DNA of 64,000 bases from Cyanobacteria bacterium P01_F01_bin.150 (GTDB lineage Bacteria; Cyanobacteriota; Cyanobacteriia; CAKZMO01). The position numbers and the translations under genes are program-made. Shown here piece after piece: positions 35,791 through 62,398 of the stretch. A model generated the notes under the pieces. That model was not told the DNA's origin. It searched no databases and saw only the letters and a list, made by a program, of their open reading frames with translations. The stretch lies in NCBI GenBank assembly GCA_039189765.1, contig JBCCYL010000001.1:125020-189019 (forward strand), in the 5' to 3' direction. The first letter of the stretch is position 1; each line of letters opens with the position of its first letter.

Positions 35791-38743
35791 TATCATCACC
35801 TACGACTTTTCATGGACAGGGCAGATTGCTGGATTCTCGGTTGAAGGGGAATTTAGCTACGATTTAAACCAGTCCTACGAGGACGGGATTGTGAGGGAGG
35901 AGAATTTGGAATCCTTTGATATCACATTCTTTGATCCGGCTGGAAACTTACTCAGAACCTACGAAGATAATCATTTAACCTTTCCTGAATTTAACTTTGC
36001 GTTTGATACTAATACCCAAGAAATTCTCCAAGACGGGTTTTTCCTGGGGTCCGATGGCTTTAATTTTGGTGAAAAGACCGCTGTGGGCGATGGGTTTACG
36101 GGGCTTAACTTCTGGTCCCGCCCTGAGTTTAATTCCCAGGGCGAGGTTCCGCCTCCCCACCTCCATATTGATGATTGGGCCGATGAGTTTGGGTTCCCCT
36201 TGGGCTTTAGCTCCCATGAAGACGTGGCATTCTTTACCCGAACTACGGCGGACCTGATTGCCACAGGACGCACGGGCGATGCCTATGTAGATAATCCCGT
36301 CGCTGGTTTGGATGAATTTGGCGATCGCATCGTCGTTTCCGTTCCCGCTAACCAGGACGGAACATTTGAGGTCGAGGCGGGGGTAACGAGCCTATTCCTG
36401 AATTTCTCTCTCTTTGAATCCGCAGGGCTAGTTATTCAGGACGCCACACCCACTGCAACCCCATTTTCCAATGAGTTCCAGCTTGCCTTTGAAGTGAGTG
36501 GTGCTGATTTTAGCTTTGAATCTGTTCCCTTTGCGCCGTTGGGCGGCAGCATTTTCCACACTGGAGATATTACATTTTTAGTCGGTGGTGATACGCTCCT
36601 TACCATTGGTGATTTCTCCGTCGGCTTTGACGCTAGCCGAGTCAGCGATACCACCAGCGGCTTCTTTGTTGCCGATACCCTAGAGGATGGACTAGGTATT
36701 GATGTTCTTTTTGACGTCAGTAATCCAGACCGCCTGATTGTGGCTGACGATGAGTTGACCATCGCAGATGCAGATTTATTGTTAGCACCTGAACTGGCGG
36801 AAATCTTGGGGATAAATGACGCTATTGGCGCGGATGTTGGCGACGTTCGCATTGATGCTGCGCTGATGGACATTTCTGATCCGCCGCCGCCCCCTCCCAC
36901 CGATACGCCCGTTATCAGCATTTCTGTGGAACCCAGCGTGGTGGCTGAAGAGGGCGATACGACTTTCTTCGAGTTTATCTTAAACGTGGATGGGGAGATT
37001 CCTCCACCGGAATTTGATGCAGACGGCAACCTGATTTCCGGTGGATTGCCCTTCTTCTTTGATAGCAGCGTTGGTGCCATTTTTGAGGAAATTGAGGGTG
37101 GCCCGATTATCAACGGCTTTACCTTTGGCTCTGTTACTACAGAAACGGGAGGGCTGGAATTTATTCTGCTGGAAGATGGTGCAACCTCTGGCTTTAATAT
37201 CTTCAATGACCTGATTGAGGAAGAGGAACAGTTTACTTTTAGCATCTTTAACGATGATGAGGGGCTGCTTAACTCCAACTACACGGTTAATCCTGAGGCG
37301 TCCAGCGCGACGGTGACCATCATTGATAATAATGGTGGTCCTGGGGTGGGTCCTACTGTCAGCCTGTCGGTCAGCGAGTCAAATTTGGTGGAGGGCGATC
37401 GCTTCACCGTCAATTTCGATGTCGAGGGTGACTTGCCCGAGGGTGGCCTTGACGTCCTTGTGACTAGCGATATGGAAGGGGCCATTGGTGAGTTTGTTAT
37501 TTTTGACGAAAACAACAATTTGGCGGTTGAAACAAACGGTATTGCCGGAGTTCCCATCGCGGGAGACGGTACGGGCAGCAGCTTTGTGGTGACGTTGGTT
37601 GCCCCAGAGGCATCCCTAACCCTTGATGTCTTTGATGATGGTCCAGGAGAGGGGCTGGAGAGCATTGTGTTTGAGGTCGCCAATGGTGAACTCTATGAAA
37701 TCACAGAACTCACCAGTGCTGTAGAGCTGATGATAGACGATGCCACGAGCGTTCCTCCCCCCGAAGCAGTGGTCACCGTTGACTTTAGTACAACGACATT
37801 TATTGAAGAACTAGGCACGCCGTTCCCTGGTGAAGTAGAAAATCCTCAAACCCTTACGGTCACCTTTACCGTGGAGGGAGAACTGCCAGACGGTGTATCT
37901 CCCGTGGTGAATTTTGCCTCTAGCGAACCCGACGGTTTGACTCGCTTCTCTTTAACAGAGGCCCAGACGGACGGTTTAATTGCCGTGGCTGATGTTATTA
38001 ACTTTGAGTTTACCGACGCCCAAATTACCCTGCTGGAACCCACGTCTTCATTGACCCTTCCTGTCTTTAATCTGCCCGATGATAGGGACTTAGATAGTGA
38101 CGGCATCATCGAAGACTTTGCGGGGCAAACGGAGATGGTTGACTTTACTATTACCTCTTTGACGGATGGCGTAACCATTAATCCTGACACGCAGGTCATT
38201 ACAGGTACCTTCTTTGAGACTATCGCCGATGCCTCACCGACTCCGTCGGCTAGCATTGACTTTGAATCAGGTAGCGCCGGAGCACTCAGTGCAGGGGATG
38301 TGGTGACCAATCAGATTGACGGTCTCTCCATTGAGGCGGCTGATGATTTGGCGGTGATGATTTTCGATAGTGAGAATCCAACCGGAGGCGATAAGGATTT
38401 GGCTAGTTCCACCCTGGGCAATGTCCTGATTATTTCTGAGGATGGTGATTCCGCAGATCCTGACGACAACGCAAAGGGCGGCACCCTTATGTTTGACTGG
38501 GATGGCACCGTAAGCGTGGCGAGCTTAGGTCTGTTAGATATTGAGGAAACTGGCGGTAGTGTTACTCTGTATAGTTCGGATGACACCACTGTTCTGGCAA
38601 CCATTGATATTCCTGGATTGGGTGATAACAGTATTCAGTCCCTCGATATTGGTACTGCTGATGTCGGCAAAATGGATGTCTTCTTAGTCGGTAGTGGAGC
38701 CATCACGGAAATTATCCTAGCGGAGGACAGCAGCATCGCTTAG
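34733..38743 (+). CDS. Family paralog (~1336 aa) with N-terminal beta-lactamase-fold serine hydrolase domain, 'WTGQIAGFSVEG' domain, domain X, Calx-beta-like modules, family C-terminal domain
   Basis: The ORF track starts at TTG 34691; the first ATG is 34733 (MTLPDRVIDALD). The SxxK motif is GSITKTF, YxN is YSNTNY and the KTG-like box is WTGSAGS. The tail is ...VGSGAITEIILAEDSSIA*. Confidence 0.8.
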   Translation: MTLPDRVIDALDTALAENLPPEVPGAAVAILTPEGEWFGAAGLSDLENNVALAPDDRFEAGSITKTFVATTLLQLVEENQLELDDTLTEWLPPTITDLVPNASDITIEQILGHTSGIADYLDGLTAQATLNPTLFLQQWEPEQLISFIDGVDPLFDPGTSWEYSNTNYILAGEVIEAVTGNSYGQEIRDRILDPVGLDNTFVFGEEDIPGDYIRGYWDFNGDGTLDNLRVTDLSWTGSAGSIISNTEDLADFFEALLVDQTLLQDETLDEMLDTIPVNSPNYDSYGLGIGTLESRNRFWYVHRGQTLAFRSNLWYSPLEDITYVELLNGRSSSNLVSDLLPTYRRTIQPPTPDIITYDFSWTGQIAGFSVEGEFSYDLNQSYEDGIVREENLESFDITFFDPAGNLLRTYEDNHLTFPEFNFAFDTNTQEILQDGFFLGSDGFNFGEKTAVGDGFTGLNFWSRPEFNSQGEVPPPHLHIDDWADEFGFPLGFSSHEDVAFFTRTTADLIATGRTGDAYVDNPVAGLDEFGDRIVVSVPANQDGTFEVEAGVTSLFLNFSLFESAGLVIQDATPTATPFSNEFQLAFEVSGADFSFESVPFAPLGGSIFHTGDITFLVGGDTLLTIGDFSVGFDASRVSDTTSGFFVADTLEDGLGIDVLFDVSNPDRLIVADDELTIADADLLLAPELAEILGINDAIGADVGDVRIDAALMDISDPPPPPPTDTPVISISVEPSVVAEEGDTTFFEFILNVDGEIPPPEFDADGNLISGGLPFFFDSSVGAIFEEIEGGPIINGFTFGSVTTETGGLEFILLEDGATSGFNIFNDLIEEEEQFTFSIFNDDEGLLNSNYTVNPEASSATVTIIDNNGGPGVGPTVSLSVSESNLVEGDRFTVNFDVEGDLPEGGLDVLVTSDMEGAIGEFVIFDENNNLAVETNGIAGVPIAGDGTGSSFVVTLVAPEASLTLDVFDDGPGEGLESIVFEVANGELYEITELTSAVELMIDDATSVPPPEAVVTVDFSTTTFIEELGTPFPGEVENPQTLTVTFTVEGELPDGVSPVVNFASSEPDGLTRFSLTEAQTDGLIAVADVINFEFTDAQITLLEPTSSLTLPVFNLPDDRDLDSDGIIEDFAGQTEMVDFTITSLTDGVTINPDTQVITGTFFETIADASPTPSASIDFESGSAGALSAGDVVTNQIDGLSIEAADDLAVMIFDSENPTGGDKDLASSTLGNVLIISEDGDSADPDDNAKGGTLMFDWDGTVSVASLGLLDIEETGGSVTLYSSDDTTVLATIDIPGLGDNSIQSLDIGTADVGKMDVFLVGSGAITEIILAEDSSIA

Positions 38744-38773
38744 GCTATTTCTATTTCTAAGTGATTGACCTCG

Positions 38774-38808
38774 AACGGTCTGTGGCTGCGGCTGTAGACC
38801 GTTTTTTT
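38774..38808 (+). terminator. Putative rho-independent terminator after gene 34733
   Basis: ACGGTCT...AGACCGT stem followed by TTTTTTTG. The stem is imperfect. Confidence 0.4.
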
Positions 38809-38841
38809 GTAAAAAGTATGGCCAATGCAACGATGGTCCTG

Positions 38842-38904
38842 TTGGTTAAGACGTTTTTGTGGAGGCACGTCGCGCTCCCATTAACCAACCACAGTTGATA
38901 CCCC
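38842..38904. repeat. Conserved palindromic intergenic element, copy 2
   Basis: TTGGTTAAGACG...GTGGAGGCACGTCGCGCTCCCA...TTAACCAACCACAGTTGATACCCC. The core GCGCGACGTGCC is in the opposite orientation relative to copy 4, and the 3' AGTTGATACCCC motif is shared. Confidence 0.45.
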
Positions 38905-39840: not shown

Positions 39841-42800
39841 ATGTACTCAGAATCAGTTAGTGGCGACATTACTAACAATCCCAATGATCCCCTGGCTTTG
39901 CCCCTTGAAGAGGGAGCCAATTCTCTCTCTGCAACAACTGGAAATGGTGACCAAGAATACGTTACTGTTACGGTCCCAGCGGGATTTGAGCTTGAGTCAC
40001 TGACCCTAAGCTCATTCTCTTCCGGCGGCGATTCAGCCTTTATTGGAGTTCAATCCGGGACTACTTTTACAGAGCCGCTGGAAGATGGTGCTAACGTTGG
40101 CAATATTTTAGGTTATGCCCTCTTTTCTGGGGGACAGGTTGGCACAAATATCCTCGACAACATCGGTAACGGAGCAGGGGCGATCGGGTTTGATGGTACT
40201 CTACCGGCTGGAGAGTACACCTTTGCCCTACAGCAGCTTAGTGGTCCTACTGATTACGAGCTAACCTTCAATGTTGCCGCTGTGGATGAGGGCGGTGACG
40301 GTGGCGATGGCGGTGACGGTGGTGATGGCGGCGATGGCGGCGATGGCGGCGGGGGCTTACCTGTAGTCAGCTATGAAGCAGTACCTGCTGTATTCTCAGA
40401 AGAGGCAGACAATAATTTAGTCGAATATAAGTTCTCAGTGGATGGTGAGCTTCCGGAAGGGGGGCTTGTTATTAAGTTCAAGTCATTTGGCAATAACGAC
40501 TTTATTGAATGGTCAAATCAGTTTGCAGCGGCCCCTGGTCCAGAACTCGTAAACCTAGAGTTTGCAGATTTTACGTTTAATCCAGAGACTGGACTACTAG
40601 ATGATTTTGATCTACTAATAACGGACACCGAAGCATCGTTTCAGATTTATCTGATTAATGACATCGTGGAAGAAGGCTCCCAGGTGTTTGACTTCCGCGT
40701 TGTCGAGGGAGAGGGCTACATCGTTGATCCAAATCAATCGCCTTTATTTACGATCAATGATGATAATGGTGGCCCTGGCGTTGGTCCCACCATCGGCCTG
40801 TCGGTATCTGAAACAAATCTGGCTGAGGCGGATAGCCTTACCGTTACCTTTGATGTGGATGGAGATATTCCACCCGAAGGGGTACAGGTGCTGGTTCAAA
40901 GCGACGTTGGTGGCTCCCTTGGTCAGTTTGATTTAGCAAATCTGAACAATATCACCACCACTGGGATTGAAGGATTACCTGAAGTGGGGGATGCAGGGGG
41001 CGGTAGCTTCTTTGCCACGCTTACGGCATCGACTGCCACCATTACCCTGGATGTCTTTGATGACATTGTGGCTGAGGACCCTTTAGACATTACTTTTACC
41101 CTGGCTAACGGTGAGGTTTACGAAGTGGACCCCGATGCCGCTAGCGCAACCCTAACGATTTCTGACCAGGAACAGCCCGCAGGTCCCACTGTAAGCCTAA
41201 GCGTAGACAACACTGATTTAGTAGAAGGGGGTGACCCAGTTACCCTCTCTATCGCTGTGGATGGAGCCATCCCTGACGGTGGGTTGCCAGTGCTCATTAA
41301 TGATGTCACCAGCGCTCAGTCAGGAGTCAGAAGTCTGACTGAATTTGACGTGGCGAATGTTATTACGGCTGGTCTTAGCGGCTTTCCTGAACCGGCGGAA
41401 GGAGACAGCGGTTTCTTTGTCACGGTTGTTGAGTCCTCAGCGACTATTACCCTTGGGGCTATTGATGAAGGCGCGGATGAGGATGAATCGCTGGAAAACT
41501 TTACCTTTGAGGTGATTGATGGTGAAGCCTATGAGGTGGATGCAGATGCCGGTAGCGTAACGGTTAGCATTACCGATGCTGCTGATGCTGGCGACGGTGG
41601 CTCTGGCGGTGGTGATGGCATAATGCGTCAAATTGTTGACGGTAACACAAGTATCTCCCTCGATTTGGATGCCTTGGGATTAACCCTAGTGTCTGAGGAT
41701 AGTAGCGGTACCCCCGCCGATGGCTTTGCCCTGGGGTTCGATATCCTGGATGACGAAACTACGTTTGAAATTGCCACAGATCCAGTTGCCTTTGACAGCG
41801 GCACAATCGAGCACTTTGGCTCCGTTACCCTGGGATTGGGGGATGCGGAAGTTACCATCGGAGATTTTTCCATTGGTTTTGATCCCGCGCGAGTATCCGA
41901 TACGGCCAGCGGCTTCTTTGTCTCCGATACCCTTGAGGACGATTTAGGGCTAGAGGTCTTGTTTGATCTGGGTAACCCAGCCATCAGTTTATCTGAGGAT
42001 CAAACCACGCTGGATGTGGGCGGAGATCTGCTCCTTTCTCCAGAACTTGCGTCAGCCCTAGGCTTAGAGGCTGGCATTGATGTGGGTGATGCCTTAGTCG
42101 AGAGTCTGGTCAGAGATCCAGCCGAGACTCCAGTGATATCCATCAGTTTTGTCCCTGCGTCTGAAATCGATCCAGATACGGGGGATACAGTCATTAACGA
42201 AGACGATGGCCGAGAGGTGGCACTGCGGCTATCCTATGATGCGGGTGTCATTCCTCCCGGTGGATATGCTGTTGCTTGGATTCTGGATGTAGACGATTTA
42301 TTTGCTGTTCCTGGCCTCTTTGATGGCAATCGTCCTGCTGGGTTCGAAGAGAATGCCTATCGACTTATTGAACCCCGTGATGACGAGAACGACCCCGGTG
42401 GCACTAAATTCGTGCTTGCACCCCGACAGCTAGAATCCGATCTGTTCTTCTCCATTTTTGACGACATTATTGAAGAAGAACCCATTACTTTAAATCTGGG
42501 CCTCCAGGCAGAAGAAGAGGGCTATGAACTCGGGACGTCGCTTGTAACGATCAGACTCCAAGATGGGCCTAGTGCAACCCCTGGTGAGGGACCAACCGTT
42601 GACCTCTCTGTCGATAGTACAGAAGTTGATGAAGGCGGTGAGTTTACGGTCAACTTTGATGTGGAGGGTGCGATTCCCGATGGTGGTCTCACTGTCTTTG
42701 TCGATGGGCCGCCTGCGGCGTTAAGTGAATTTAATATCTTTGGTGACGATGGGATTGACCCAGAAACAGATATAGTTGGACTCGCTGGCTTCCCCGAGGC

Positions 42801-45800
42801 GGATGGAGATGCAGGCGGATTCTTTGCAACCATCACCGAAAATCAGGCGTCAATCACTCTATCTGTGTTTGAGGATGGTCCTGGGGAAGGGGAAGAAACG
42901 CTCACCTTTGAGCTAGCCGATGGTGAATTGTATGAGGTCGCAAATTCATCGGTTGATCTCACCATCAATAGCGACACTCCAGAGGGAACCGCGATCGTTG
43001 GCATAACCCTAGAACCCACATTTGTATCTGAAGAAGACGAGGGTGCGTCCTTTACCGCAACGTTTACGGTTACGAATGCTGACATTCCTGCGGTGGAATT
43101 TGATGCGGATGGCAACTATGTTTCTGGTGGACTATCGGTTCTGGTTGATGGAGCAGATATTACGCCCATCTTTGATGAGATTACCGGCGGTCCGATTCTT
43201 GATGGACTTGCGATCGGGTCTTTCTTTGACCCCGATCAGCCTAATCTTATTGAATTTGTGCTGTTGCAGGAAGATTCCACGGGAACGCTCAACATCGTTA
43301 ATGATGTCATCGAAGAAGAGAATCAAGACTACACGTTCACAATCTTAAATGACGAAAACGATCTGCTTGGTTCTAACTATGTGGTCAATCCGGATACCGC
43401 CAGTGCGACGGTCACATTATCTGATGGTAATGGCGGGCCTGGGGTTGGTCCCACAGTCGGCATCACGGTAGACAAAGACACCGTGGCCGAAGGAGAGACC
43501 GTCACTCTTAACTTTACGGTCGATGGTGAGATTCCGGATGAGGGGCTTGAAGTCTTAGTTCAGAGTCCGACCCCTGGGGCGATCGGCGAATTTAGTATCT
43601 TTGACGCGGACGGCAACTTCCTAATTGAGACCACTGGCATGGCGGGTTTCCCCATCTCCGCTGATGGGATTGGCAGCAGCTTCTTGGCGACGATTACCGA
43701 GCCAACTGCCAGCATTACCCTCTCTGCGTTTGATGATGGTCCTGACGAAGGAGTAGAGTCCTTGACCTTTGACATTGTCAATGGTGAGGTTTACGAAGTA
43801 TCGGAAATTGAAGGCTCTGTTACCGTAGATATTGTTGATACGGTGTCTGCTCTTCCCACTGTTTCGATTTCTACACCAACTCCAGTGGTCAGTGAAGATA
43901 GCGATCCAACCTTGACCGTCGTCTTTACCGTCGATGGTGAGATTCCTGAGGGTGGCGTGCCCATTAGCATCGGTGGTGATCTAACCAGCCTGTTTGACCC
44001 TGAACTGCGACTACTGGTTCAGGCACCCTTTATCGTCGAACCAGAGACCGGTCTAATTCCCGTGGCCAACCGCGACCCCGAATTTGATATTGCCTTGACG
44101 GCTCCTGAGGTCAGCGTTAGCTTTGAGCTGTTTGACGATATCCTCGAAGAAGAGCCTCTATCCCTTGACTTTGAGCTGTTTGAAGGGGATGGCTACATTG
44201 TCGGCGATACCGTTGCCACGGTCACCCTGGTGGATGGCGATAGTGTGACGCCCGACAGTGGTCCCACCGTGAGCCTGTCGGTTGATGATTCTGACCTTGC
44301 GGAAGGGGATGAATTCACCGTTAACTTTGACGTTGATGGCGATATTCCTGAGGGGGGTCTCACCGTCTTTGTCGATGGACCCCCTGCGGCCATCAGCGAG
44401 TTCAATATCTTTGGTGATGACGGGATTGACCCGGCCACTGATTTAGCGGGTATCGAAGGCTTCCCCGTTGCAGATAATGATGCGGGTGGCTTCTTCGTTA
44501 CTCTAGTTGAAAATCAGGCATCTATTACCCTATCGGTGTTTGATGATGGACCCACTGAAGGACCGGAGTCGATCACCTTTGAGCTGATTGACGGTGAAGA
44601 GTACGAGGTCACGTCCGTTGTGACCCGCGAGTTTAGCTGGACGGGCCAAATTGCTGGATTTAGCGTCGAGGGTGACTTTAGCTACGATGCCAGCCAGACC
44701 TACGAAGCGGGTATTGTGCGGGAGCAGGATCTGCTGTCATTCAATGTGTCTTTCTTTGACCCGGATGGCAATCTGCTACGCACCTACGAAGACAACCAGG
44801 ATTTGAGTCAGTATCCGACGTTTAACTTTGCCTTTGACACCCAAACCCAAGAGATTTTGCAGGATGGCACCTGGAATGTGGATGACAACGTCGATTTAAC
44901 CAGAAACGGCTTTATGATCGGCGAGGGGAATCCGGATCTCAGAGGCGACATCGGCGTGCAGTCGGGACTTGCCTTCTGGTCACGCCCCGCAGATGACAAG
45001 CTACCACACCTGCATGTGGATGACTGGGATAACGAACTTGGCTTCCCCATTGGCTACAGCAGCCATGAAGATGTTTCGTTCCCCACCCAAACCATTGCTG
45101 AACTGATTGAGACGGGCAAAGTGGGTGAAACCTACCTTGAGTCTGCTCAAGCCAGACCAGAGGAACTGGGTGCTCCTGTCGAGGTCTCGGTATCCGGTAA
45201 CGGTTCGGGGGGCGTGGTTGAACTCACCATCAATGATGGCGGTGAGGATGCAGTGTTTGCAGCTGAGTCTGGCGTTACTAGCGTGTTCCTCGACTTTGTG
45301 CTGTTGGAGGAAGTTGCAGGACTGACCCTAGTTAGTGCGGATAGCGATGCAACTCCAGCAGAGCGACCTTCTTTCCTAGACCCATTCCAGGTTGGATTTG
45401 CGATCGCCGACACCACTGACTTCACCTATGCCCCCGCACCCTTTACACCCCTGGGTGGCACCATTGAGCACTCTGGCACCATTACCCTTGGCTTAGGCGG
45501 TGCTGAAGCAACCATTGGTGAATTCTCCATTGGCTTTGATCCAGCTCGGGCGTCTGACACTGCCAGCGGCTTCTTTGTCGCCGATACGCTGGATGACCCA
45601 CTGGGTCTAGAGGTGCTGTTTGATATCAGCGCTCCTGGAACTGTTATCACCTCCGGCGGCAGTCTGGAAATTAGTAACGCTGACCTGCTGCTTGCGCCTG
45701 AATTGGCTGGAGCGTTGGGACTGGCTGACTTGGCTGGAGCCGATGTGGGTGATGCCCAAATTGATGCAGTTGTTGCTCTTACTGATGCACCAGCGCTTAG

Positions 45801-51967: not shown

Positions 51968-51979
51968 AGCGTTCGAGAA

Positions 51980-52010: not shown

Positions 52011-52094
52011 AATTTCCTCGTTCCCAGCGTCTCGCCTGGAACATCGTGTTTCTTATAACGTTGCACTATTTTGGATTCTGGAGAAAATCAATTT

Positions 52095-54872
52095 ATGGTA
52101 CAGATTAGTCTGTCCACATCAACCACATTTGATGGTGATCTGAATGCTCTCGTTGAAGATCAAGGGACATTGTTAACAGTTCGATTCGACTTGGATGACG
52201 CTGCCCCTGCGGATGGGTTAAGAGTCTTCTTGGATAGTGAGGTTCCAGGCATCCTTAATCGTCTCGATTTTGCCGCATTGGTAGCAAATCCCCAGCTTGA
52301 AAATATTGATTTTTTCCCACTTCCTCAGAGAAATGATGACCGATCCGGTGTTGCACTCACCATTTCTCCGGGGGCAGAATTTGCCACGTTTACCATTAAT
52401 ATCCGCGATGATGAAGACACGGTACCGCCGCAGGAACTTTTCGATGGCTTGGTAGAAGCAGAATTTTCAGTGATTACGGCGGACCAAATCCTGCCTGAAG
52501 ATCAAGCCTCCATTGTTGGCATTAGTGACTACACGGTCGATGCCAATGCGGCCAGCAGTACGGTACTGTTTGTCGATACGGAGAGTCAGCTACCAGGTAA
52601 TTCGCCTGAACCGCCTGATTCGCCTGAGCCACCTGAGCCACCCACACCACCCACACCGCCTGAGGCACCGAGCAACGTGGACCCTGTGGCGAATAATGAT
52701 GCCTACAGTGCAACAGCGGGTGAAACCCTAGTCGTTGATGCGGTGACGGGCCTGCTAGCCAACGACAGCGATGGGGATGGGGATAGTTTAACGGTGGCGA
52801 TCGCCTCCGATGCCACCAACGGCAGCGTTTCCCTCAACGATGACGGCTCCTTTAGCTACACCCCCAATGCTGACGTTGTCGGCGTTGACCGCTTTAGCTA
52901 CACCGTTAGCGATGGCAACGGCGGCAACGATACCGCTGATGTGTCCATTAACGTTATGGCCGAACCAAGTGAGCCACCCGGCGGTAGCTTGGAGACACCT
53001 CCGGGCATTCTTCTTTCTGTAAATCCTGATAATCCAACACCTCCTGGTCCTGAATTTAGTGGGTCTCCTGCTGAATATGCAACGGCATTGGTTGCCAAGG
53101 AGATCTCGACTCGAGTGTTCGGGGCAAATGGGGATATCCAACCCACTCTCGCGACCGAAGTCACACTGCTGGGGCTTGCAGCTTCAGGATTCAATCCCAG
53201 TCTTATAGAAGTAACCATAGACGAGATCCAACAGACCGTAACCGTCTCCCATCCAGGCCTACCAGACCGCACCGCCATCTATACTGAATCCCAGGGGTCT
53301 ATCATCTTACCGGTCGGCGTGAACGACCTTGCCTTCACGCCCCAGACCATTGAGTGGTTAGGACCCCCTGAAGATGCCCTCTGGCCGTTGGGAGAGACCA
53401 TCGTCGAGGGCGACAGTCTGATCGATACAGCAGCTCTGGAGGCAGCGCTCGATACCCACATAGAACGGACAGGAATACGGGCGATCGCCGTAGTCCATGA
53501 AGGAGAGCTAGTGGGGGAGCGGTACGCACCAGGATACGGTCCATTTGTTCCACAACGTGCCTGGTCCACGGGCAAGAGTGTGGTCGCTACGGCCATTGGC
53601 CGCCTGATTGACCAGGGATATCTCGACCTCGATCAAACGGTTCCAGTCGAAGCGTGGGCGAACGACGAGCGCCAAGAGATTACCCTTCGCAATTTGCTGA
53701 ACATGTCCAGTGGGCTTGATCAACAGTTCGACCGAAGTTTAACTGCCTTTTTCTCTCCCGACAACGAGCATACGTTTATTTACAGCGAAGGATTTGACAC
53801 CGTCGCTGATGCGGTAGAAGTTCAGCCAGGCGCATTTGCTCCCGGTACCGAATACGCCTACCGCAACGCCAATCCGCTGATTGCCACCGCTGTTGCCCGT
53901 CTTGTCTTTGCCGAAGCGACGTCCCAGGATGAGTTGGCTTTCTTTGCCCGTGAAGTCTTTGAACCCCTGGGCATGCGGTCGTCTTTTATTGAGACGGATC
54001 TCCACGGCAACTTCCTCTCCTCAGGCGCATTCTTTTCAACCGCCCGCGATCTGGCACGGCTGGCGCTGGTGCATTTGCAAGAGGGCGAGTTTGGGGGAAC
54101 CCAAGTATTGTCCGAGGAGTGGACTAACTTTGTATATCAACCCTCACCCGGTCGTGAGGACTTTGGTGCCTATTGGCGAAACAATATCAATGGTGCATTG
54201 GATTTGCCCACCGATGCCTTCTTTGCCAGCGGTGGTTTTGGACAGAGGGCGATCGCCATCCCCAGCCGGGATTTGGTGATCTCTCAGCTTGCCTTTGATC
54301 CGTTTACGGATGATCAAAATTTTGAGCTTTTCGTAAATGAAGTTGTGGGCATTGTTGATGCGATCGCTCCTATCGATGAAGTTGTGTACGACTTCGAAAC
54401 CAGTAGCCAGGGAGAACTGAAATCAGGAGATGTGGTAACAGATCAATTTGAGGGTCTAACCATTGAAGCGGCCGATGACCTATCTGCCATGATTTTTGAT
54501 AGCGCAAATCCCACCGGAGGCGATCAGGATTTGGCCAGTTCAACCTTGGGCAATATCCTGATCATCTCTGAAGATGGTGACTCTGCCGACCCAGACGATA
54601 ATGCCAAGGGAGGGACCCTGATGTTTGACTGGGATGGGGTAGTAAATATAGAGAGTCTTGGCCTCCTGGATATTGAGGAGTCAGGCGGTACCGTTACCCT
54701 GTATGGAGTCGATGATGCCACGGTGCTAGCAACGATTGATATTCCTGGACTGGACGATAATAGTTTCCAATCCCTCGATATCGGTACCGCTGATGTGGGC
54801 AAGATGGACGTATTTATGGTGGGTAGTGGAGCTATTACCGATATTCTAATAGCGGAAGATAGTGCTTCGTAA
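52095..54872 (+). CDS. Family paralog (~925 aa): shared N-terminal domain, cadherin-like/Big domain, beta-lactamase-fold serine hydrolase domain, family C-terminal domain
   Basis: The ORF is open from 52071, but ATG 52095 (MVQISLSTSTTFDGD) aligns with the paralog starts and has GGAG upstream. The cadherin-like segment is NVDPVANNDAYSATAGETLVVDAV...DRFSYTVSDGNGGNDTADVSINV. SxxK is WSTGKS and YxN is YRN. The tail is ...VGSGAITDILIAEDSAS*. Confidence 0.8.
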   Translation: MVQISLSTSTTFDGDLNALVEDQGTLLTVRFDLDDAAPADGLRVFLDSEVPGILNRLDFAALVANPQLENIDFFPLPQRNDDRSGVALTISPGAEFATFTINIRDDEDTVPPQELFDGLVEAEFSVITADQILPEDQASIVGISDYTVDANAASSTVLFVDTESQLPGNSPEPPDSPEPPEPPTPPTPPEAPSNVDPVANNDAYSATAGETLVVDAVTGLLANDSDGDGDSLTVAIASDATNGSVSLNDDGSFSYTPNADVVGVDRFSYTVSDGNGGNDTADVSINVMAEPSEPPGGSLETPPGILLSVNPDNPTPPGPEFSGSPAEYATALVAKEISTRVFGANGDIQPTLATEVTLLGLAASGFNPSLIEVTIDEIQQTVTVSHPGLPDRTAIYTESQGSIILPVGVNDLAFTPQTIEWLGPPEDALWPLGETIVEGDSLIDTAALEAALDTHIERTGIRAIAVVHEGELVGERYAPGYGPFVPQRAWSTGKSVVATAIGRLIDQGYLDLDQTVPVEAWANDERQEITLRNLLNMSSGLDQQFDRSLTAFFSPDNEHTFIYSEGFDTVADAVEVQPGAFAPGTEYAYRNANPLIATAVARLVFAEATSQDELAFFAREVFEPLGMRSSFIETDLHGNFLSSGAFFSTARDLARLALVHLQEGEFGGTQVLSEEWTNFVYQPSPGREDFGAYWRNNINGALDLPTDAFFASGGFGQRAIAIPSRDLVISQLAFDPFTDDQNFELFVNEVVGIVDAIAPIDEVVYDFETSSQGELKSGDVVTDQFEGLTIEAADDLSAMIFDSANPTGGDQDLASSTLGNILIISEDGDSADPDDNAKGGTLMFDWDGVVNIESLGLLDIEESGGTVTLYGVDDATVLATIDIPGLDDNSFQSLDIGTADVGKMDVFMVGSGAITDILIAEDSAS
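53380..54370 (+). other. Beta-lactamase-family serine hydrolase-like domain inside gene 52095
   Basis: STGK (SxxK), YAYRNAN (YxN) and GGFGQRAIAIPSRDLV (the C-terminal strand typical of the family). The third box is degenerate, so it may be catalytically altered. Confidence 0.5.
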
Positions 54873-55390: not shown

Positions 55391-58300
55391 TTGATAATGA
55401 CAGACGCTCAAAATTCTGAATCTACAGGTGGTCGCAATCTTTCCGGAGCGCTCTATGTTGCGGACCAAACATTAGACACCCTATTGCTGGTTCAAGACTT
55501 AAATGGTGACGGTGATGCCAACGATCCGTCGGAAGCAACCGTGTATTTTGATGGCACAAATGCGTCGGGACTTTTAGAGCCAACGGGCAATATTTTTACA
55601 GTCCTACAGGCCGCAGATGGTTCTGTACTCTATGGTGACGGCGATAGTGATACTGTTTATCGGTTGACCGATACTAACCGTGATGGTGATGCTCTAGATG
55701 CGGACGAGGCCACGGTTTGGTTCTCCTCAGACAATGCAGAGGGTCTGCCGTTGCTGACCCCCAACGGTTTAGCCACAGGTCCCGATGGCGCAGTTTACAT
55801 CACAGAAGCCGATACAGTCGCCACGCCCAATGGTGATTTTATCTATCGCACCGAGGATTTGAACGGTGATGGCGACGCCAATGATGCAGATGAAGCGAGG
55901 GTCTGGTTAGATTTAAAGGCCCTAAATCCTAACTCCTCAGCGTTTGAAATTACCTTTATCGGAGATGTTGCCTACATTATCGATAGTGCAGGTGGTGACC
56001 CCAACGTACTTTATCGAGCGGAAGATGCAAACGGCGACGGAACCATTGACACAAGCGAAGCATCGGTGCTGGTGGACGAAACCATTGTTCCCGTTGATTT
56101 TGGCCTTGCAAGTGACAGTCAAAGTCTTTATGTGGTGGAGCTTTTAGATTTCTCAGAGGCGCAATCTGTCTTTAGAATTGACGACAATAACGGCAGTGCC
56201 ACGGTCACTGAAGTGTGGAACAATACGGCAGTGCCTGATGGCTACCTGTCCTCCGTTGCCTTCTCCATCGCTGCCAGTGATAACGGCATGCTAGCAATCA
56301 CCTCCAACGGTGTTGATCCTAACGAGGACAATATTTTTCAACTAACGGACCTTAACGGCGACGGTGATTACTTTGATGAGGGTGAGACCGTGCCCTTTCT
56401 CTCTCGCCTAGATACTGACACTGTTCCCGAACGACCAAGGGTGGTGGAGTATGCGGCGAATCCCACGCCAATAGTTCCTGGCATTGTTCTTACGGCAACC
56501 GATGCTTACTATACATTCAGCGGTAGTATTAGCTCAAATAGCACTCGCCTGCTGGGGGATAAAGCAACGGCTATTGGGCTGGAGGGATTGGACACTATTT
56601 CGTTTCTACAGTTTGATCCAATGGCGCTACCAGAAACGCTGCTAGACCAGGCATTTAGCGCAACTCTGACCCTAGAGCATGACGCATCTTTGGCTGATTC
56701 GCTAATTCCCGCCACCGACGATCGCCCGGTTATTCTCAGCATCTATGATCTGGATGCACCCTTTGATGACACCAAGCCCGGTGGTAATCTGGCTGACATT
56801 GACTATGGGGAGAATGGGGCAAATGCGATCGCCGTTACATCAGTCGGTGATGATGGCCTATACAGTTGGGATGTCACGGAACTGATAGCAGAATGGGCCG
56901 TTGACACAACTCAAAATGACGGCTTGGCCATTAGCGGGATCTTTGGCAACGAAAACCTGGATGATCGCAACAGCTACGGCATTTTCCACACCGTTGGCTC
57001 TACGGATGGACTCGTGCCGACTTTAACGATCACCCCAAAAGAAGACGATTTGCAAGTTAGTCTATCCACGTCCACCACGTTTGAAGGTGACCTTAATGCT
57101 CTGGTGGAAAATCAAGGAACAGCCATCACCTTTCGCTTTGACTTGAGTGGGCCTGCCCTGGCAGGTGGCCTGACTTTATTTGTTGATGCAGACGTCGAGC
57201 AAATGTTGAATCGGCTGGATTTGCCCACGTTTGCATTTAACCCCATCACTGAAAATATTGACTTTAGAAGCGTTATTCCCAATCGTGACAGCTCCGGCTT
57301 TGTCCTGACTATTGATGAAGGAGCCACTTTTGGCACTGCAACGCTTAACATCTTTGACAATAACGAACCTGAGCCAACCCTTCCCGAGACCTTTGATGGC
57401 CGCGTCGATGCAACCTTCTCCCTAGTTACGGAGGACCAAGTCGATCGCGATATCGAAGGACCGATTCCGACCTTAAGCGACTATACGATCGATCCAGCCG
57501 CCGCCACCAGCGTTGTTATTTTTGCAGACGATATTAGCCAACTTGAAGATCCGACCGATCCTCAGCCTCCCACACCGGGTGACGGCCTCCAGGTTAGCCT
57601 CTTTACCGGGCCAAATTACCTGATTGAAGATGAGGGCACCGTGAGCGCCCATGCCTTTAACGTCACTGGAGGCGTTATCCCTGAGGGTGGCCTGGTGGTT
57701 GCAGTAGACGCCCCCAACCTCAACGAGTTTGATCTAGCAGCGATCTCAGTGGAAGGCGGTTCCATTGAAGCAGTGCGCGATGGCGGCTTTGATTTGCGGA
57801 TGACCGAGTACACGACTCTGGTCAACCTCCCCATTGCCAATGATGGTGAAATTGAAATTGGTGAAACCGCCAGCTTTAGCTTGGCTGCGGGAGATGGCTA
57901 CAACATTGTCGCCGACTACAGCGGCGGCAGCTTTGGCTTGGTGGATACGCGATTGGACATTCCCATGGGCGTGATCAATGAACCCAATAATGCGATCGCC
58001 TTTGCCACCGAGACCCAAATCAGCCCTGAAAACCCCACCTTTTTGGGCACGGATTCAATCTATTTTGATATCGGTAACCGCTATCTTAACGACGATGGCA
58101 CCTACACCTATATCGACTACAGCGAGGACGTAGACGTCTTCAAAGTTGATTTAACCGCTGGGCAGACTATTACCATTGAGACCTTCGACTTTGACACCAA
58201 CGTTGACGAATTTGGCGTCGGTTTTGCCATTAACGCCTTTGTCTACGATGCTGAAGGTAACCAGCTTCAGGACTATATCAATACGGGCTTTGATCCGGCG

Positions 58301-61300
58301 GCGGCCCCCGACAAGCTGTTTGGTGGCCTTGGTCCCTTTGATGTGAATGAAACCGACAGCTACGACGAATTTACTGCGCCCGCAGACGGCTCCTACTTTA
58401 TTGCTGTCGGTGATGATGGCCAGGTGCAGAACTTCTGGGATGTGGTGGCCCCGTTCTATGATCCCAACGTACCGGGTTCCGGTAACGGTAATCGCTCCAT
58501 CTTTGGTGATTACAGCATTGAAATTAATTTAATCACCGACGACAATCCCCGCAAAGTCGGTACCCCCACCCCGCCGGTGAGCAACCCTGGTGTAACGAAT
58601 CCTCCCACCCTGTCCCTAAGCGCGAATCCCACCACCACCAATGGAGACGGCAACTTTATTAATGCGGTGGTGGAACATGTAGACGTGGGTGGTGTGTCCA
58701 GCGTTACCTTTACGATTCAGGCTGAGGGAGAAATTCCGGACGGTGGTATTGAGTTTGTTCTTAATAGCGATGCCAATCTGTTTGATTACGTATCATATTT
58801 AGGCCAAAGCGCCCTGCCCAGCACCATTGGTGGTCAGTCCCTAGGCGCTTACTACAACGCAGACGGCATTCCCACGGGCATCCGGCTGCTGATTGATGAG
58901 CCCTTGATGACCGTCACCTATGAATCGGCCAATAATCAGCCCTGGTTCCCCACTTTCTACGGCAATATTGTGGATCGGTATGAGCCGTTGGAAACTGATG
59001 GTGCAGAGGACGTGACCTTCTTCCTCCAGCCCGGTGAAGGCTATACCATTGATGCTGATGCCGGATCAACCGAGGTCACTTACTATGATTCCGTGGCCGA
59101 TGTGCCCCCTCCCACTACCCCTGGAGGCACGGTGCCTGAAGTGGGGATTACGGTCAGTGAAACAACTCTGATTGAAACCGAACAGACTGAAACAACCTTG
59201 ACCTTTAGCCTCTCTGAAGCACCTCCCGCAGAAGGGCTAACCATCTTTGTTGATAGTGACGACGAGCCTGTGGTGGGGAGTCCCCTCAGCCAGTTTGCCG
59301 TGCTAGAGGCAGAGGTCAGCGGAGGAAACTTCCCGATTCCCAATGCTGATTCTTCAGGCTTCTTTTTCACGGTCACTGAACAAACCGCCTCCATTACCCT
59401 CGCTGTTTTTGATGAGCTAACGGTTCCCAATATTGATCCGCTGACGGTTCAAGAAGGAATCGTTGCCCTTAACTTTGCCCTCCAGCCATTGGCAGGCTAC
59501 ACCATTGATCCAGATGCCAGTGACGTTGGCCTAACGATCGCCGACAATCCCGACTCTGGCATTCAGGTCAGCTTGACGGGTTCCCCAGACACCCTGATTG
59601 AATCAGAGGGGACTGCAGGAGTCCATACCTTTAGCTTGAGTACGCCTCCATCCGCCGAGGGATTAACGGTGAGCGTCAGTGCATCGGCGTTGGATGAGTT
59701 TGATTTGGATGCGATCGCCGTCGAAGGCGGCTCCATTGCAGCCGTGAGCACCGATGGGTTTGACCTTACGATTACCGAGCAGACCGCCACCATTAGCCTG
59801 CCAGTACTCAACGATGGTGTGGATGAAGGGAGTGAAACCGCAAGCTTTGCCCTAGAGGCCAGCGATGACTATGAGCTTAACGCCGCCTTTAATGAAGCCA
59901 CCTTTACCCTAGCGGATACCCTAGACCAGGCGACTGTTTCAGTGGAGAGTGAGCTAATTGGCGATGAAATTAGCAACAGCACAATTCCCGAGGCAAATGC
60001 ATTAAGCGTCAGCAGCAGTAATCCCACCGTATCCATCAATGGTCTGATTGGTGAAAGCTTTAGCGACCTTCCAGAGGACGTTGATTTCTTCTCCTTCGAT
60101 TTGGACGCTGGGCAAACCATTAGTTTAGATATTGACACTGAGGAAATTCTGCCCAACACGATTAACTTCCGGCAGGTCGTGTATCCAGCATTGGCCAATA
60201 TCCTGCAGAAGCCTGATACTGAACTGCGGCTATTTGATGCCCAGGGCAATGAACTGGCATCCAACAATGACGGAGCCGCTGAGGATGAAGACTTCTCCCG
60301 CGATCCCTTCCTTGAGTACACGGCCACGTCTGCGGGCACCTATTATGTAGGGGTTAGCCAGCTTGGTAACCGCAACTACGACCCCTTTGTGTCACGGAGC
60401 GGTAGCGGCTGGACCTTCCCTGAGATTGGCGTAAACAATGGGTTTTATGAGCTGACCGCCACCCTGGAAGATAGCGATTTGGAGCCAGGCCCCTTTGAAA
60501 ACTTGGTTATTTTTGGCGATAGTCTTTCCGATGCAGGCAACGCCTTCCAGATCTCAGACGGTGCAGTTCCTCCATCTCCGCCTTATGTTAACGGACGTTT
60601 TTCAAACGGTGATTTAATCGTAGATTTTATTGCCGAGGCCCTGGGGTTACCCGAAAATGAAAGCTATCTTTTAGGCGGCAGTAATTATGCCTTTGGTGGT
60701 GCCCAGACTGGTGAAGGAACGTCATTTACAGGTACGTTGGAAGGTCTACTTAATCCGGTAGAGGTTCCCAATATTGCCCAGCAAATTGATCTTTACCTGG
60801 CCGATCAGACACCCGCCAACACCGACTTATTCTTTATCTACGGTGGTGGTAATGACTTTATCGCGCCCTTAGCTGCGGGCCAAGGAATACCCACGCCAGA
60901 ATCAGTCGTTGGCAATATTACTGCCCACATTACAGAACTGGCAGAAGCGGGGGCAACAACCTTTGTGGTGCCAAATCTCCCATCCCCAGGCATTAGTCCT
61001 CTATTTGCGGGTCAGCCGCCAGAAGTAAGGGGGCTTCTCAATAATGCAACCGATGCGTTTAATCAACTGCTGGATGTGGAATTGGATGCGATCGCCTCAG
61101 ACCTAGATGTGACGATTCTTGAGCCTGACTTCAACGGCATTGTGGATGATATACTCGCCAATCCCAGTCAGTTTGGTCTGACCAATGTCACTGATTCCGT
61201 GATCGACTTTAGTAGCGGCACCCTGATTGGCAATCCTGATGAATTTTTCTTCTGGGACTTCGTTCATTCCACAACCGCTGCCAACGATATCATTGCGGAT

Positions 61301-62398
61301 GAAGCGATCGAGCTACTATTGGATAACCCTGATCCGGGTCCACCGGCAGGCTTTACGGTCTTTGACTTTGAATGGACTGGCCAAATTGCTGGGTTCAGCG
61401 TGGAGGGTACTTTCAGCTATGATGCAACCCAAACCTTCACCGACGATATTGTTCGCGAAGAGGATCTGCTTGGATTTGATATCTCTTTCTTTGACCCCGA
61501 TGGTAATCTACTGCGGACCTACGAAAATAACCATCTCACGTTCTCTGAGTTCAACTTTGCCTTCGATATCAATAATCAGCAAATTCTGACCGATGGTATC
61601 TTTACCGAACCCGATGGCTTAAACGTTGGGGAGAAGACCGCTGTGGGCGATGGCTTTACGGGGTTAAATCTCTGGAGTAAGTCCAAAGAAACCTCCTCTT
61701 CGCTGATTCATGTAGATGACTGGTCCGATGAATTTGGTTTCCCCTTGGGCTACAGCAGTCACGAAGATATTGCCTTCTTGACCCTGACCACGGCAGAGCT
61801 AATTGAAACGGGCAAGGTGGGTGAAACCTATCTGGATGATATCCAAGATACTCTGACCGAATTGGGCCAGCCGATTCGGGTGGTTCCCGACGGCGGGTTA
61901 GAGGCTGATAGCCTTGATTTTGAATCCAACTTCCAGGGAGAGCTAAGCGCTGGGGATGTGATTACCGATCAGTTTGACGATCTCACCATCGAGGTAGCGG
62001 GTGATTTAACGGCCATGATTTTTGATAGCGCCAACCCAACCGGAGGCGATTACGACCTGCGTAGCGATACGCTGGGTAATGTTTTAATCATCTCTGAAGA
62101 TGGCGACTCAGCAGACCCCGACGATAACGCCAAGGGCGGTACCCTAATGTTTGATTGGGACGGGACGGTAAGCGTGGAGAGCCTCGGTCTTCTCGACATT
62201 GAAGAATCGGGCGGCATGGTTACGCTGTACGGAGCCGATGACAATGCGGTGTTGGCAACTATCGATATTCCTGGATTAGGAGACAATAGCCTCCAGTCTC
62301 TCGATATCGGTATCGCTGATATCGGCAAGATGGACGTATTTCTGGCTGGCAGTGGAGCCATTACTGAAATAATCCTAGCGGAGGACAGCATCGCATAA
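55391..62398 (+). CDS. Giant (2335 aa) family paralog: FG-GAP-like Ca-binding repeats, DNRLRE-like domain, internal copy of the family N-terminal domain, PPC-type domains, embedded GDSL/SGNH esterase-lipase domain, WTGQIAGFSVEG domain, family C-terminal domain
   Basis: DLNGDGDANDPSEATVYF-type repeats occur 4-5 times. The GDSL blocks are FGDSLSDAGN, GRFSNG, GGGNDF and DFVHST (DxxH). The PPC motif is EDVDFFSFDLDAGQTISLDID...TYYVGVSQLGN. The tail is ...AGSGAITEIILAEDSIA*. Confidence 0.85.
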   Translation: MIMTDAQNSESTGGRNLSGALYVADQTLDTLLLVQDLNGDGDANDPSEATVYFDGTNASGLLEPTGNIFTVLQAADGSVLYGDGDSDTVYRLTDTNRDGDALDADEATVWFSSDNAEGLPLLTPNGLATGPDGAVYITEADTVATPNGDFIYRTEDLNGDGDANDADEARVWLDLKALNPNSSAFEITFIGDVAYIIDSAGGDPNVLYRAEDANGDGTIDTSEASVLVDETIVPVDFGLASDSQSLYVVELLDFSEAQSVFRIDDNNGSATVTEVWNNTAVPDGYLSSVAFSIAASDNGMLAITSNGVDPNEDNIFQLTDLNGDGDYFDEGETVPFLSRLDTDTVPERPRVVEYAANPTPIVPGIVLTATDAYYTFSGSISSNSTRLLGDKATAIGLEGLDTISFLQFDPMALPETLLDQAFSATLTLEHDASLADSLIPATDDRPVILSIYDLDAPFDDTKPGGNLADIDYGENGANAIAVTSVGDDGLYSWDVTELIAEWAVDTTQNDGLAISGIFGNENLDDRNSYGIFHTVGSTDGLVPTLTITPKEDDLQVSLSTSTTFEGDLNALVENQGTAITFRFDLSGPALAGGLTLFVDADVEQMLNRLDLPTFAFNPITENIDFRSVIPNRDSSGFVLTIDEGATFGTATLNIFDNNEPEPTLPETFDGRVDATFSLVTEDQVDRDIEGPIPTLSDYTIDPAAATSVVIFADDISQLEDPTDPQPPTPGDGLQVSLFTGPNYLIEDEGTVSAHAFNVTGGVIPEGGLVVAVDAPNLNEFDLAAISVEGGSIEAVRDGGFDLRMTEYTTLVNLPIANDGEIEIGETASFSLAAGDGYNIVADYSGGSFGLVDTRLDIPMGVINEPNNAIAFATETQISPENPTFLGTDSIYFDIGNRYLNDDGTYTYIDYSEDVDVFKVDLTAGQTITIETFDFDTNVDEFGVGFAINAFVYDAEGNQLQDYINTGFDPAAAPDKLFGGLGPFDVNETDSYDEFTAPADGSYFIAVGDDGQVQNFWDVVAPFYDPNVPGSGNGNRSIFGDYSIEINLITDDNPRKVGTPTPPVSNPGVTNPPTLSLSANPTTTNGDGNFINAVVEHVDVGGVSSVTFTIQAEGEIPDGGIEFVLNSDANLFDYVSYLGQSALPSTIGGQSLGAYYNADGIPTGIRLLIDEPLMTVTYESANNQPWFPTFYGNIVDRYEPLETDGAEDVTFFLQPGEGYTIDADAGSTEVTYYDSVADVPPPTTPGGTVPEVGITVSETTLIETEQTETTLTFSLSEAPPAEGLTIFVDSDDEPVVGSPLSQFAVLEAEVSGGNFPIPNADSSGFFFTVTEQTASITLAVFDELTVPNIDPLTVQEGIVALNFALQPLAGYTIDPDASDVGLTIADNPDSGIQVSLTGSPDTLIESEGTAGVHTFSLSTPPSAEGLTVSVSASALDEFDLDAIAVEGGSIAAVSTDGFDLTITEQTATISLPVLNDGVDEGSETASFALEASDDYELNAAFNEATFTLADTLDQATVSVESELIGDEISNSTIPEANALSVSSSNPTVSINGLIGESFSDLPEDVDFFSFDLDAGQTISLDIDTEEILPNTINFRQVVYPALANILQKPDTELRLFDAQGNELASNNDGAAEDEDFSRDPFLEYTATSAGTYYVGVSQLGNRNYDPFVSRSGSGWTFPEIGVNNGFYELTATLEDSDLEPGPFENLVIFGDSLSDAGNAFQISDGAVPPSPPYVNGRFSNGDLIVDFIAEALGLPENESYLLGGSNYAFGGAQTGEGTSFTGTLEGLLNPVEVPNIAQQIDLYLADQTPANTDLFFIYGGGNDFIAPLAAGQGIPTPESVVGNITAHITELAEAGATTFVVPNLPSPGISPLFAGQPPEVRGLLNNATDAFNQLLDVELDAIASDLDVTILEPDFNGIVDDILANPSQFGLTNVTDSVIDFSSGTLIGNPDEFFFWDFVHSTTAANDIIADEAIELLLDNPDPGPPAGFTVFDFEWTGQIAGFSVEGTFSYDATQTFTDDIVREEDLLGFDISFFDPDGNLLRTYENNHLTFSEFNFAFDINNQQILTDGIFTEPDGLNVGEKTAVGDGFTGLNLWSKSKETSSSLIHVDDWSDEFGFPLGYSSHEDIAFLTLTTAELIETGKVGETYLDDIQDTLTELGQPIRVVPDGGLEADSLDFESNFQGELSAGDVITDQFDDLTIEVAGDLTAMIFDSANPTGGDYDLRSDTLGNVLIISEDGDSADPDDNAKGGTLMFDWDGTVSVESLGLLDIEESGGMVTLYGADDNAVLATIDIPGLGDNSLQSLDIGIADIGKMDVFLAGSGAITEIILAEDSIA
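60500..61330 (+). other. GDSL/SGNH hydrolase (lipase/esterase) domain inside gene 55391
   Basis: Block I is LVIFGDSLSD, block II GRFSNGDL, block III YGGGNDF and block V FWDFVHST, all in canonical order. Confidence 0.7.

Follow-up and report, generated by a model that had tools for sequence, protein, structure and literature searches.

ZepA (All3515) of Anabaena, a PEP-CTERM exoprotein, has a new fold, carries a three-histidine zinc site and serves metal uptake (PMC10957091). How cyanobacteria acquire trace metals from beyond the outer membrane is poorly understood, and no extracellular protein had been shown to take part before ZepA (2024). Cyanobacterial AraC/PchR-like regulators of the IutR type adjoin genes for TonB-dependent receptors and activate iron uptake genes (PMC11221513), and the metallophore clusters of marine Leptolyngbyaceae carry AraC, TonB-dependent receptor and RTX genes (PMC11240249). 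Here we describe a protein module that occurs three times in a 64,000-nt stretch of DNA (hereafter, the window) from Cyanobacteria bacterium P01_F01_bin.150, a marine metagenome-assembled genome (GenBank assembly GCA_039189765.1, contig JBCCYL010000001.1, positions 125,020 to 189,019 of the forward strand), a window that holds eight very large co-oriented genes. The module is an unnamed protein family whose predicted fold, modeled with confidence, is unlike any solved structure. Its sequence features and genomic settings suggest, with a probability of roughly 0.4, that it is an autonomous extracellular ligand-binding unit, the ligand being a metal ion or a metal chelate (metallophore).

The original prediction, made from the letters of the window, was of a recurrent domain in three paralogous genes. 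Indeed, the motifs WTGQIAGFSVEG, FFDPxGNLLRTYE, FNFAFD, H(V/I)DDW and SSHED were found in three translated open reading frames (ORFs) where the prediction had placed them, i.e., in gene A (ORF 34691-38743, annotated start 34733), gene B (39841-46287) and gene C (55391-62398). The domain copies, as delimited by the envelopes of a profile hidden Markov model (HMM), are:

35789-36343, + strand: domain copy A ("short" subtype), aa 367-551 of ORF 34691-38743; HMM score 261, E 1e-81

44614-45192, + strand: domain copy B ("long-insert" subtype), aa 1592-1784 of gene 39841-46287; HMM score 279, E 3e-87

61349-61888, + strand: domain copy C ("short" subtype), aa 1987-2166 of gene 55391-62398; HMM score 256, E 4e-80

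The placement first proposed was therefore correct, whereas the length of ~170 aa was too low and the right-hand limits were ~50-60 nt too short, the envelopes spanning ~180-193 aa. When each copy was searched against the window with tblastn, the three were 54-64% identical in pairwise comparison (E 1e-59 to 1e-73), copy A matching the other two at E 1e-62 to 1e-73; this likeness is far beyond chance. No fourth or degenerate copy was found in the window, and since the next tblastn match had an E of only 0.18, the window holds exactly three copies. In a neighbor-joining tree, copies A and C were in the "short" clade while copy B was in the "long-insert" clade with non-cyanobacterial stand-alone proteins, the long-insert subtype being otherwise mostly non-cyanobacterial. 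Since A and C belong to a different clade from B, the three copies are, as judged from this tree, ancient paralogs and not recent duplicates.

In keeping with the original prediction, the domain could not be assigned to a known family, with no sequence match over its length in Pfam (2025 copy), NCBIfam (June 2026) or the PDB. Isolated copies gave 0 Pfam matches at E <= 10, and 58 aligned family members gave PEP-CTERM or RTX matches plus noise only, with no clear match to a Pfam or DUF family among them. NCBIfam recognized only the PEP-CTERM tails of family members, the globular part reaching at best 19 bits against a cut-off of 60 (the "cistern" family). Searches of PDB sequences, by phmmer with one copy and by hmmsearch with the family profile, gave best E values of 0.011-0.045, to unrelated proteins. 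For the whole window proteins, Pfam and NCBIfam matches were limited to PF00144, GDSL, PPC, BatD and DNRLRE, all outside the domain. Family members are at present annotated only as "PEP-CTERM sorting domain-containing", "serine hydrolase domain-containing" or "hypothetical". In the window, NCBI names gene A "serine hydrolase domain-containing" and gene C "SGNH/GDSL hydrolase family"; these product names cover only the hydrolases, so the module is unnamed in public annotation. An AlphaFold2 model of copy C, built on the 58-sequence alignment, had a mean predicted local distance difference test (pLDDT) score of 95.2 and a predicted TM-score (pTM) of 0.90, and consisted of about 14 beta strands and two short helices. 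Foldseek, which had been proposed as a check from the outset, found no structural neighbor of this model among 350,542 PDB chains (best E 0.13, TM-score <= 0.25). The TLDc domain (PF07534), which includes PEP-CTERM-anchored bacterial TLD proteins (NF038124), was considered and rejected, there being neither a PF07534 match nor a clear fold match.

Conservation was counted over 103 domains, non-redundant at 90% identity. Residues G11, Q12, G20, F22, N69, G83, G90, G94, H121 and H138 were invariant, and W9, A14, F16, R36, L40, F47, P50, Y58, N61, F70, D73, W109, D123, D124, W125, E139, D140 and F143 were conserved in at least 95% of the domains (D123, D124, W125, E139 and D140 in 95-99%). Several of these form a motif, [PS]-H-[LV]-H-[VIF]-D-D-W, which is followed at least 17 residues on by the invariant third His within S-S-H-E-D. 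In the model, residues 119-124 make up one strand, from which a loop of varying length leads to the next, and H138-E139-D140 stand at the start of that one. Since positions 119, 121 and 123 alternate along the first of these strands, they should face the same side of it in the predicted structure. We infer that the His, Asp and Glu residues lie close together in space; H-x-H-x-D-D-W on one predicted strand, S-S-H-E-D at the start of the next, and Q12, N69 and D73 of the scaffold would then line a pocket, and this pocket would bind a metal ion or a metallophore.

The domain is built of two parts. Weaker matches of the profile search were cyanobacterial PEP-CTERM proteins of ~190-230 aa that matched its first ~110 residues only. 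Comparison of the two profiles with hhalign showed that the domain family and this sister family (alignment A2, e.g., P0115 and P0212) are homologous over 111 columns (99.6%, E 1e-24). Since the homology ends there, the domain is best described, from these profiles, as a scaffold of the first ~110 residues, common to both families, followed by a family-specific C-terminal part of ~70 residues. The sister family shares the motifs W.G, G.FS(Y/F)D, SFFDP.G, NFNFDT and LQ.G, and it shares the layout of signal peptide plus PEP-CTERM with the stand-alone relatives of the domain. However, its C-terminal half carries Cys pairs and an LD.GG motif and is without HxHxDDW or SSHED. The sister family has no Pfam or NCBIfam model either. 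Two of its members, P0122 and P0130, are fused to an LprI lysozyme-inhibitor domain (PF07007), and a member in Nostoc (L090 6335-8615) is encoded between genes for PhoX and PhoD phosphatases.

A word-indexed search recovered 55 clusters of homologs, while an exhaustive profile search of 1.84 billion representatives recovered 195 at E <= 1e-3, 96 at E <= 1e-10 and 43 at E <= 1e-30. A scan with one genome per species gave 79 loci, mainly in marine or benthic filamentous cyanobacteria (Leptolyngbya, Phormidesmis, Rivularia, Calothrix, Moorena, Okeania, Dapis, Acaryochloris, Halomicronema, Waterburya and Oscillatoria); other carriers were Rhodospirillaceae, Geminicoccaceae, Chromatiales, Competibacteraceae, Arenicellales and Myxococcota. 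About half of the family members are stand-alone exported proteins in which the domain is the sole globular part. We identified 58 stand-alone homologs whose signal peptide is cleaved immediately ahead of the domain, 18 of them with a PEP-CTERM end and 25 with Cys on both flanks. The conserved strands begin 2-4 residues past the cleavage site and end ahead of the PEP-CTERM or Cys tail; since these elements adjoin both ends, they mark the boundaries of an autonomous exported domain.

The architectures were diverse. Cyanobacterial proteins made of a signal peptide, the domain and PEP-CTERM were encoded at ~23 non-duplicate loci, and non-cyanobacterial ones made of a signal peptide, Cys, the domain and a basic Cys tail at ~10. 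At 13 loci, one or two copies of the serine hydrolase domain PF00144 precede the domain, which is followed by a module that we call "FSIGFD" and by an RTX or other tail. A ~390-aa N-terminal region followed by the domain and RTX was seen at five loci, PPC with the domain at four, and the domain with DNRLRE and RTX at two. One representative each had His_Phos_1 plus domain plus RTX and domain plus DUF4114. Tandem copies occur as pairs in L006 and P0057 and as triplets in L009 and P0056. Among the architectures surveyed, fusion to a GDSL domain was found in this window only. Taken together, the boundaries and architectures indicate, at the level of sequence, that the module is an autonomous, exported domain that is mobile between architectures. 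Two loci of the survey were unusual. In Leptolyngbya sp. SIOISBB (L054 3828-6946), the gene for PF00144, the domain and FSIGFD is split inside the domain into overlapping ORFs of 542 and 552 aa, owing either to a frameshift in a pseudogene or to misassembly; downstream of it lie two AraC genes and one for an LCM methyltransferase. The stand-alone homolog P0047 (L005; ENA contig ctg3402l, 1.65 Mb) is encoded amid 12 kb of very short genes (50-165 aa) without Pfam matches, which is unusual for bacteria.

We also clustered the flanking ORFs at 76 non-duplicate loci to define neighbor families. An AraC-family regulator was a neighbor at 18 of the 76 loci, an LCM-type methyltransferase at 10, an AMIN-Plug-TonB-dependent receptor at seven, a transporter of the major facilitator superfamily (MFS) at six and a Peripla_BP_2 binding protein at four. 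The AraC gene is typically the immediate downstream neighbor of the domain gene, co-oriented with it and 110-280 bp away. Of the 65 loci whose downstream sequence was long enough, 10 had its start <400 bp downstream on the same strand and 14 have one further downstream. This placement was alike for stand-alone PEP-CTERM, triple-tandem and PF00144-fusion genes, and the median identity of the AraC neighbors among themselves was only 34%. A typical order, at L056, is TonB-dependent receptor, FecB, domain gene, AraC, TonB-dependent receptor, FecB. A sensitive scan revealed TonB-dependent receptors within 5 kb at 12 independent loci from two phyla, including five of the ~15 non-cyanobacterial loci, and two of the neighboring receptors exceed the cut-off of TIGR01783 (NCBIfam, "TonB-dependent siderophore receptor"). 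Among the neighboring products, the binding proteins are FecB-, FepB- and FhuD-like and the MFS transporter is EntS-like. In a Chromatiales genome, the domain gene is divergent to a TonB-dependent receptor gene within a FecI/FecR/TonB-dependent receptor island. Overall, ~25% of the loci had metal-related neighbors, whatever the architecture and across phyla. A universal partner gene of the stand-alone copies was sought and rejected, as none was constant across the loci looked up.

Upstream sequences were inspected as well. In a metagenome-assembled genome of Waterburya (L030), a gene for a 397-aa protein made of the domain and RTX has a Fur box, GATTATGATAATCATTATC (18/19 against the consensus), about 45-65 nt upstream of its start at 4910. 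An enriched upstream 8-mer, AAATCTCC, was rejected as a regulatory site because it is conserved Shine-Dalgarno context. The ribosome-binding context TTTTGGAGATTT-N5-ATG is strongly conserved within one cyanobacterial clade, ahead of about 15 of its stand-alone PEP-CTERM genes (e.g., L056 ~4900), and ~45-60 nt upstream of those genes there is a semi-conserved element, TTGAC.ACATG.CAGTT, that may be a promoter or operator.

The source contig was also examined upstream of the window (L089; window position 1 corresponds to L089 6914). A TonB-dependent receptor gene at 2250-4643, whose product is 39% identical to neighbors elsewhere, is followed at 4656-5975 by a gene for an EntS-type MFS_3 transporter that is 67% identical to one beside the L033 domain gene. 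This pair lies 1-4.7 kb before the window start, with a fatty-acyl-AMP-ligase-like gene (- strand) beside it and an RTX protein gene after it, which suggests from gene content that the window begins beside a metallophore-type transport and biosynthesis locus. Within the window, 26958-27620 (+), between two giant genes, encodes an Fe2+-dependent (PKHD) dioxygenase of the PiuC/YbiX type (291 bits against a cut-off of 143, NF003974). The PiuC/YbiX family is classically Fur-regulated and is tied to receptor genes in enterobacteria and Pseudomonas. Ahead of the giant array, tandem genes at 4012-6024 and 6185-8056 (+) encode ATP-binding cassette (ABC) transporters of the ABC_membrane_2 / SbmA-BacA type (PF06472 + PF00005), and g3244 (254 aa, no family) ends 3 nt ahead of the first of them.

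On the metal- or metallophore-binding reading, the module would capture its ligand outside the cell. The stand-alone form would do so at or near the cell surface by means of its PEP-CTERM anchor, or after release as a disulfide-stapled soluble protein, while the form fused to serine hydrolases, a GDSL esterase or giant adhesin-like proteins would deliver the same ligand or substrate to the enzyme or surface. The ligand might then be handed over to a TonB-dependent receptor. More doubtful is a fuller version of this proposal, in which the family would be a new-fold protein trap for a metal or metallophore, a functional analog of hemophores and ZepA though unrelated to them, displayed on the surface of Cyanobacteria and some Proteobacteria to feed TonB-dependent receptors under a PchR/IutR-type regulator, with the fusions made by marine filamentous cyanobacteria to secreted esterases, secreted peptidases and giant matrix proteins releasing or concentrating organically bound metals at the cell surface. 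Several observations weigh against a role in metal binding. H119 is only 90% conserved, the first His of the PHxH motif being replaced by Leu in copy C and its subclade. About three quarters of the loci have no metal-related neighbor within 5 kb (e.g., Moorena, L085 and L086), and the enrichment at the others is a rough estimate made without a genome-wide background rate, many cyanobacterial loci being mutually related. In the window there is no AraC, TonB-dependent receptor or FecB gene, and a scan with the Fur consensus found no Fur box; the link of the window to the upstream receptor is indirect, as at least 37 kb separate that gene from gene A. In addition, the sister family lacks the His motif and had no TonB/AraC context in the two loci examined, and a protein built for metal uptake would not obviously be joined to hydrolases and adhesin-like repeats.

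The original prediction had also placed two copies directly behind an enzyme domain, and this was borne out by PF00144 before copy A and GDSL before copy C. The domains that surround the three copies are:

34799-35728, + strand: PF00144 beta-lactamase-family serine hydrolase domain of gene A, aa 37-346 (Pfam, E 5e-57)

36371-36880, + strand: FSIGFD module after copy A (blastp between genes; no Pfam match)

45265-45774, + strand: FSIGFD module after copy B, 54% identical to the gene A module

60503-61303, + strand: GDSL/SGNH lipase-acylhydrolase domain of gene C, aa 1705-1971 (Pfam PF00657, E 9e-21)

61916-62395, + strand: shared ~160-aa C-terminal domain (CTD) of gene C (blastp); the same CTD ends gene A at 38258-38731 and gene B at 45811-46275

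18863-19303, 26211-26639, 33881-34351, 51494-51955 and 54390-54863, + strand: CTD in the remaining giant genes (blastp)

A Pro-rich linker of ~20 aa joins PF00144 to copy A, and a short Pro-rich linker of ~15 aa separates copy C from the GDSL domain, whose region also has a PlaA-like match in NCBIfam (E 2e-33). Copy B is preceded by Calx-beta-like repeats and no enzyme. The unnamed FSIGFD module (~170 aa, "...IGDFSIGFD..R.SDT.SGFFV.DTL...LFD...") also lies at 41641-42117 and 33335-33844 and occurs in g28472; the order of domain and then FSIGFD module recurs in 15 species loci. The CTD is 62-82% identical by blastp among the eight giant + strand proteins and has no Pfam or NCBIfam match. Since an N-terminal signal peptide is not obvious in any of the eight, the CTD may serve secretion or sorting. 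Relatives in other genomes carry RTX tails of the type I secretion system (T1SS) kind or other conserved C-termini in its place. It had been remarked that the module always lies N-terminal to this region, which is true but uninformative, because the CTD terminates all eight giant proteins. The gene g52071 (52071-54872, +, 933 aa) encodes cadherin-like/Big_9 domains, PF00144 and the CTD without the domain under study; therefore, pairing of hydrolase and domain is not obligatory even at this locus. Gene B and its neighbor, gene 46466, are alike over 39841-41600 and 46466-48240, with the first 119 residues identical and 91% identity over ~590 aa, which indicates recent duplication or recombination between neighboring giant genes. 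Gene B also carries a (GGD)n run near aa 150-172.

Among the alternatives to binding of a metal or metallophore, we considered a carbohydrate- or exopolysaccharide-binding module that resembles carbohydrate-binding modules (CBMs) or lectins, anchors secreted enzymes and proteins of the surface in the sheath or matrix, and possibly has a structural Ca2+ site. Carbohydrate-binding or lectin-like accessory modules are likewise ~150-200-aa beta-rich units that stand behind catalytic domains, in tandem or in stand-alone surface proteins, and the domain has a beta-rich fold, many invariant or nearly invariant aromatics (W9, F16, F22, F47, Y58, F70, W109, W125 and F143), two or three tandem copies in some proteins and an accessory place behind enzymes. 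PEP-CTERM proteins, moreover, are typical of exopolysaccharide producers (PMC1569441). We nevertheless consider this explanation unlikely. None of the 58 members matched a Pfam CBM or lectin family, and there was no fold match. Glycoside hydrolases and polysaccharide lyases were absent from among its fusion partners, which were PF00144, GDSL, His_Phos_1, PPC, DNRLRE, DUF4114 and RTX; the fused enzymes are thus of esterase, peptidase or phosphatase types, which argues against a carbohydrate-binding role. An invariant His is unusual in CBMs, and the synteny with AraC, TonB-dependent receptor and FecB genes would be left unexplained.

The same conserved polar residues could instead belong to a small metal-dependent enzyme, with HxHxDD...HED as its active site, that acts alone on the surface or beside the fused hydrolases. 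Invariant or nearly invariant polar residues are unusually many (Q12, R36, N61, N69, D73, H121, D123, D124, H138, E139 and D140), and the domain is the sole globular part of about half of the members. However, triplication and a C-terminal accessory place typify binding modules rather than catalytic domains, no likeness to an enzyme fold or family was detected, and H119 is dispensable in one subclade, all of which makes a catalytic role quite improbable. Somewhat less probable again is a structural, adhesive or protein-protein unit of the surface matrix that has no small-molecule ligand. Such a unit would suit the setting of the domain among the Calx-beta-like, PPC, cadherin-like and RTX modules of giant surface proteins, but a spacer would hardly be expected to keep His, Asp, Glu and Gln invariant across phyla. 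One form of this explanation, an inhibitor- or immunity-like beta barrel, is suggested by the two distant relatives fused to LprI, yet those fusions are confined to the sister family, which is without the His motif.

The enzyme-associated copies also recall the D-aminopeptidase DAP and Pab87, in which C-terminal beta-barrel domains directly behind a PF00144 serine hydrolase shape access to the active site. That the module is a comparable regulatory or specificity "lid" of the preceding hydrolase is the least probable explanation, since, although a ~20-aa linker joins it to a preceding PF00144 domain in 13 species loci and six cluster representatives and it follows GDSL here, most members have no enzyme partner, the partner enzymes have unrelated folds, g52071 has PF00144 without it in the same window, and Pro-rich linkers suggest independent modules. 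The original prediction of a binding or regulatory module paired with hydrolases therefore survives in part. A binding role remains the best guess, and the place behind secreted hydrolases does recur in other genomes, where the co-occurrence survey also found a His-phosphatase fusion. A regulatory appendage specific to hydrolases does not fit, as about half of the members are stand-alone and others are in tandem or are joined to RTX only, PPC or DNRLRE.

Should the module indeed bind a metal or metallophore, it would represent a second protein class for extracellular metal acquisition, unrelated to ZepA and more modular, occurring alone, in tandem and fused to hydrolases. Modular extracellular binding domains and PEP-CTERM surface proteins are familiar kinds; the link to metal uptake would be new, and it draws on partial synteny. 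The family is common in marine benthic cyanobacteria that make metallophores. Whatever its function, it merits a database entry, considering its high-confidence model, lack of a solved neighbor, clear boundaries and about 200 cluster representatives. The small, soluble, stand-alone members make the function directly testable.

Of the described systems, ZepA offers the closest parallel. The order of signal peptide, globular part and PEP-CTERM in ZepA is that of 18 of the 58 stand-alone relatives, whereas the three window copies lie within giant proteins that end in another C-terminal domain. Both have an H-x-H element, part of a His-based metal site that is demonstrated in ZepA and proposed here. 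Part of ZepA, too, was reported as a new fold, and in both cases the distribution is patchy in Cyanobacteria and Proteobacteria and there is a link to uptake through outer-membrane receptors. Homology was nonetheless rejected: comparison of the family profile (A1) with ZepA by hhalign gave a probability of 0.1%, and with the sister alignment A2 the PEP-CTERM tail alone aligned. The motifs differ as well, being H-X2-9-H-[FY]-H in ZepA and [PS]-H-[LV]-H-x-D-D-W ... S-S-H-E-D in the domain. ZepA has two domains and a mature mass of ~27 kDa, while members of the domain family have one domain of ~20 kDa, and ZepA, unlike this family, is not reported as a module of multidomain proteins. Since the two are not homologous, the parallel is one of analogy, and the domain would resemble ZepA in the logic of its layout, His-based site and receptor-linked setting.

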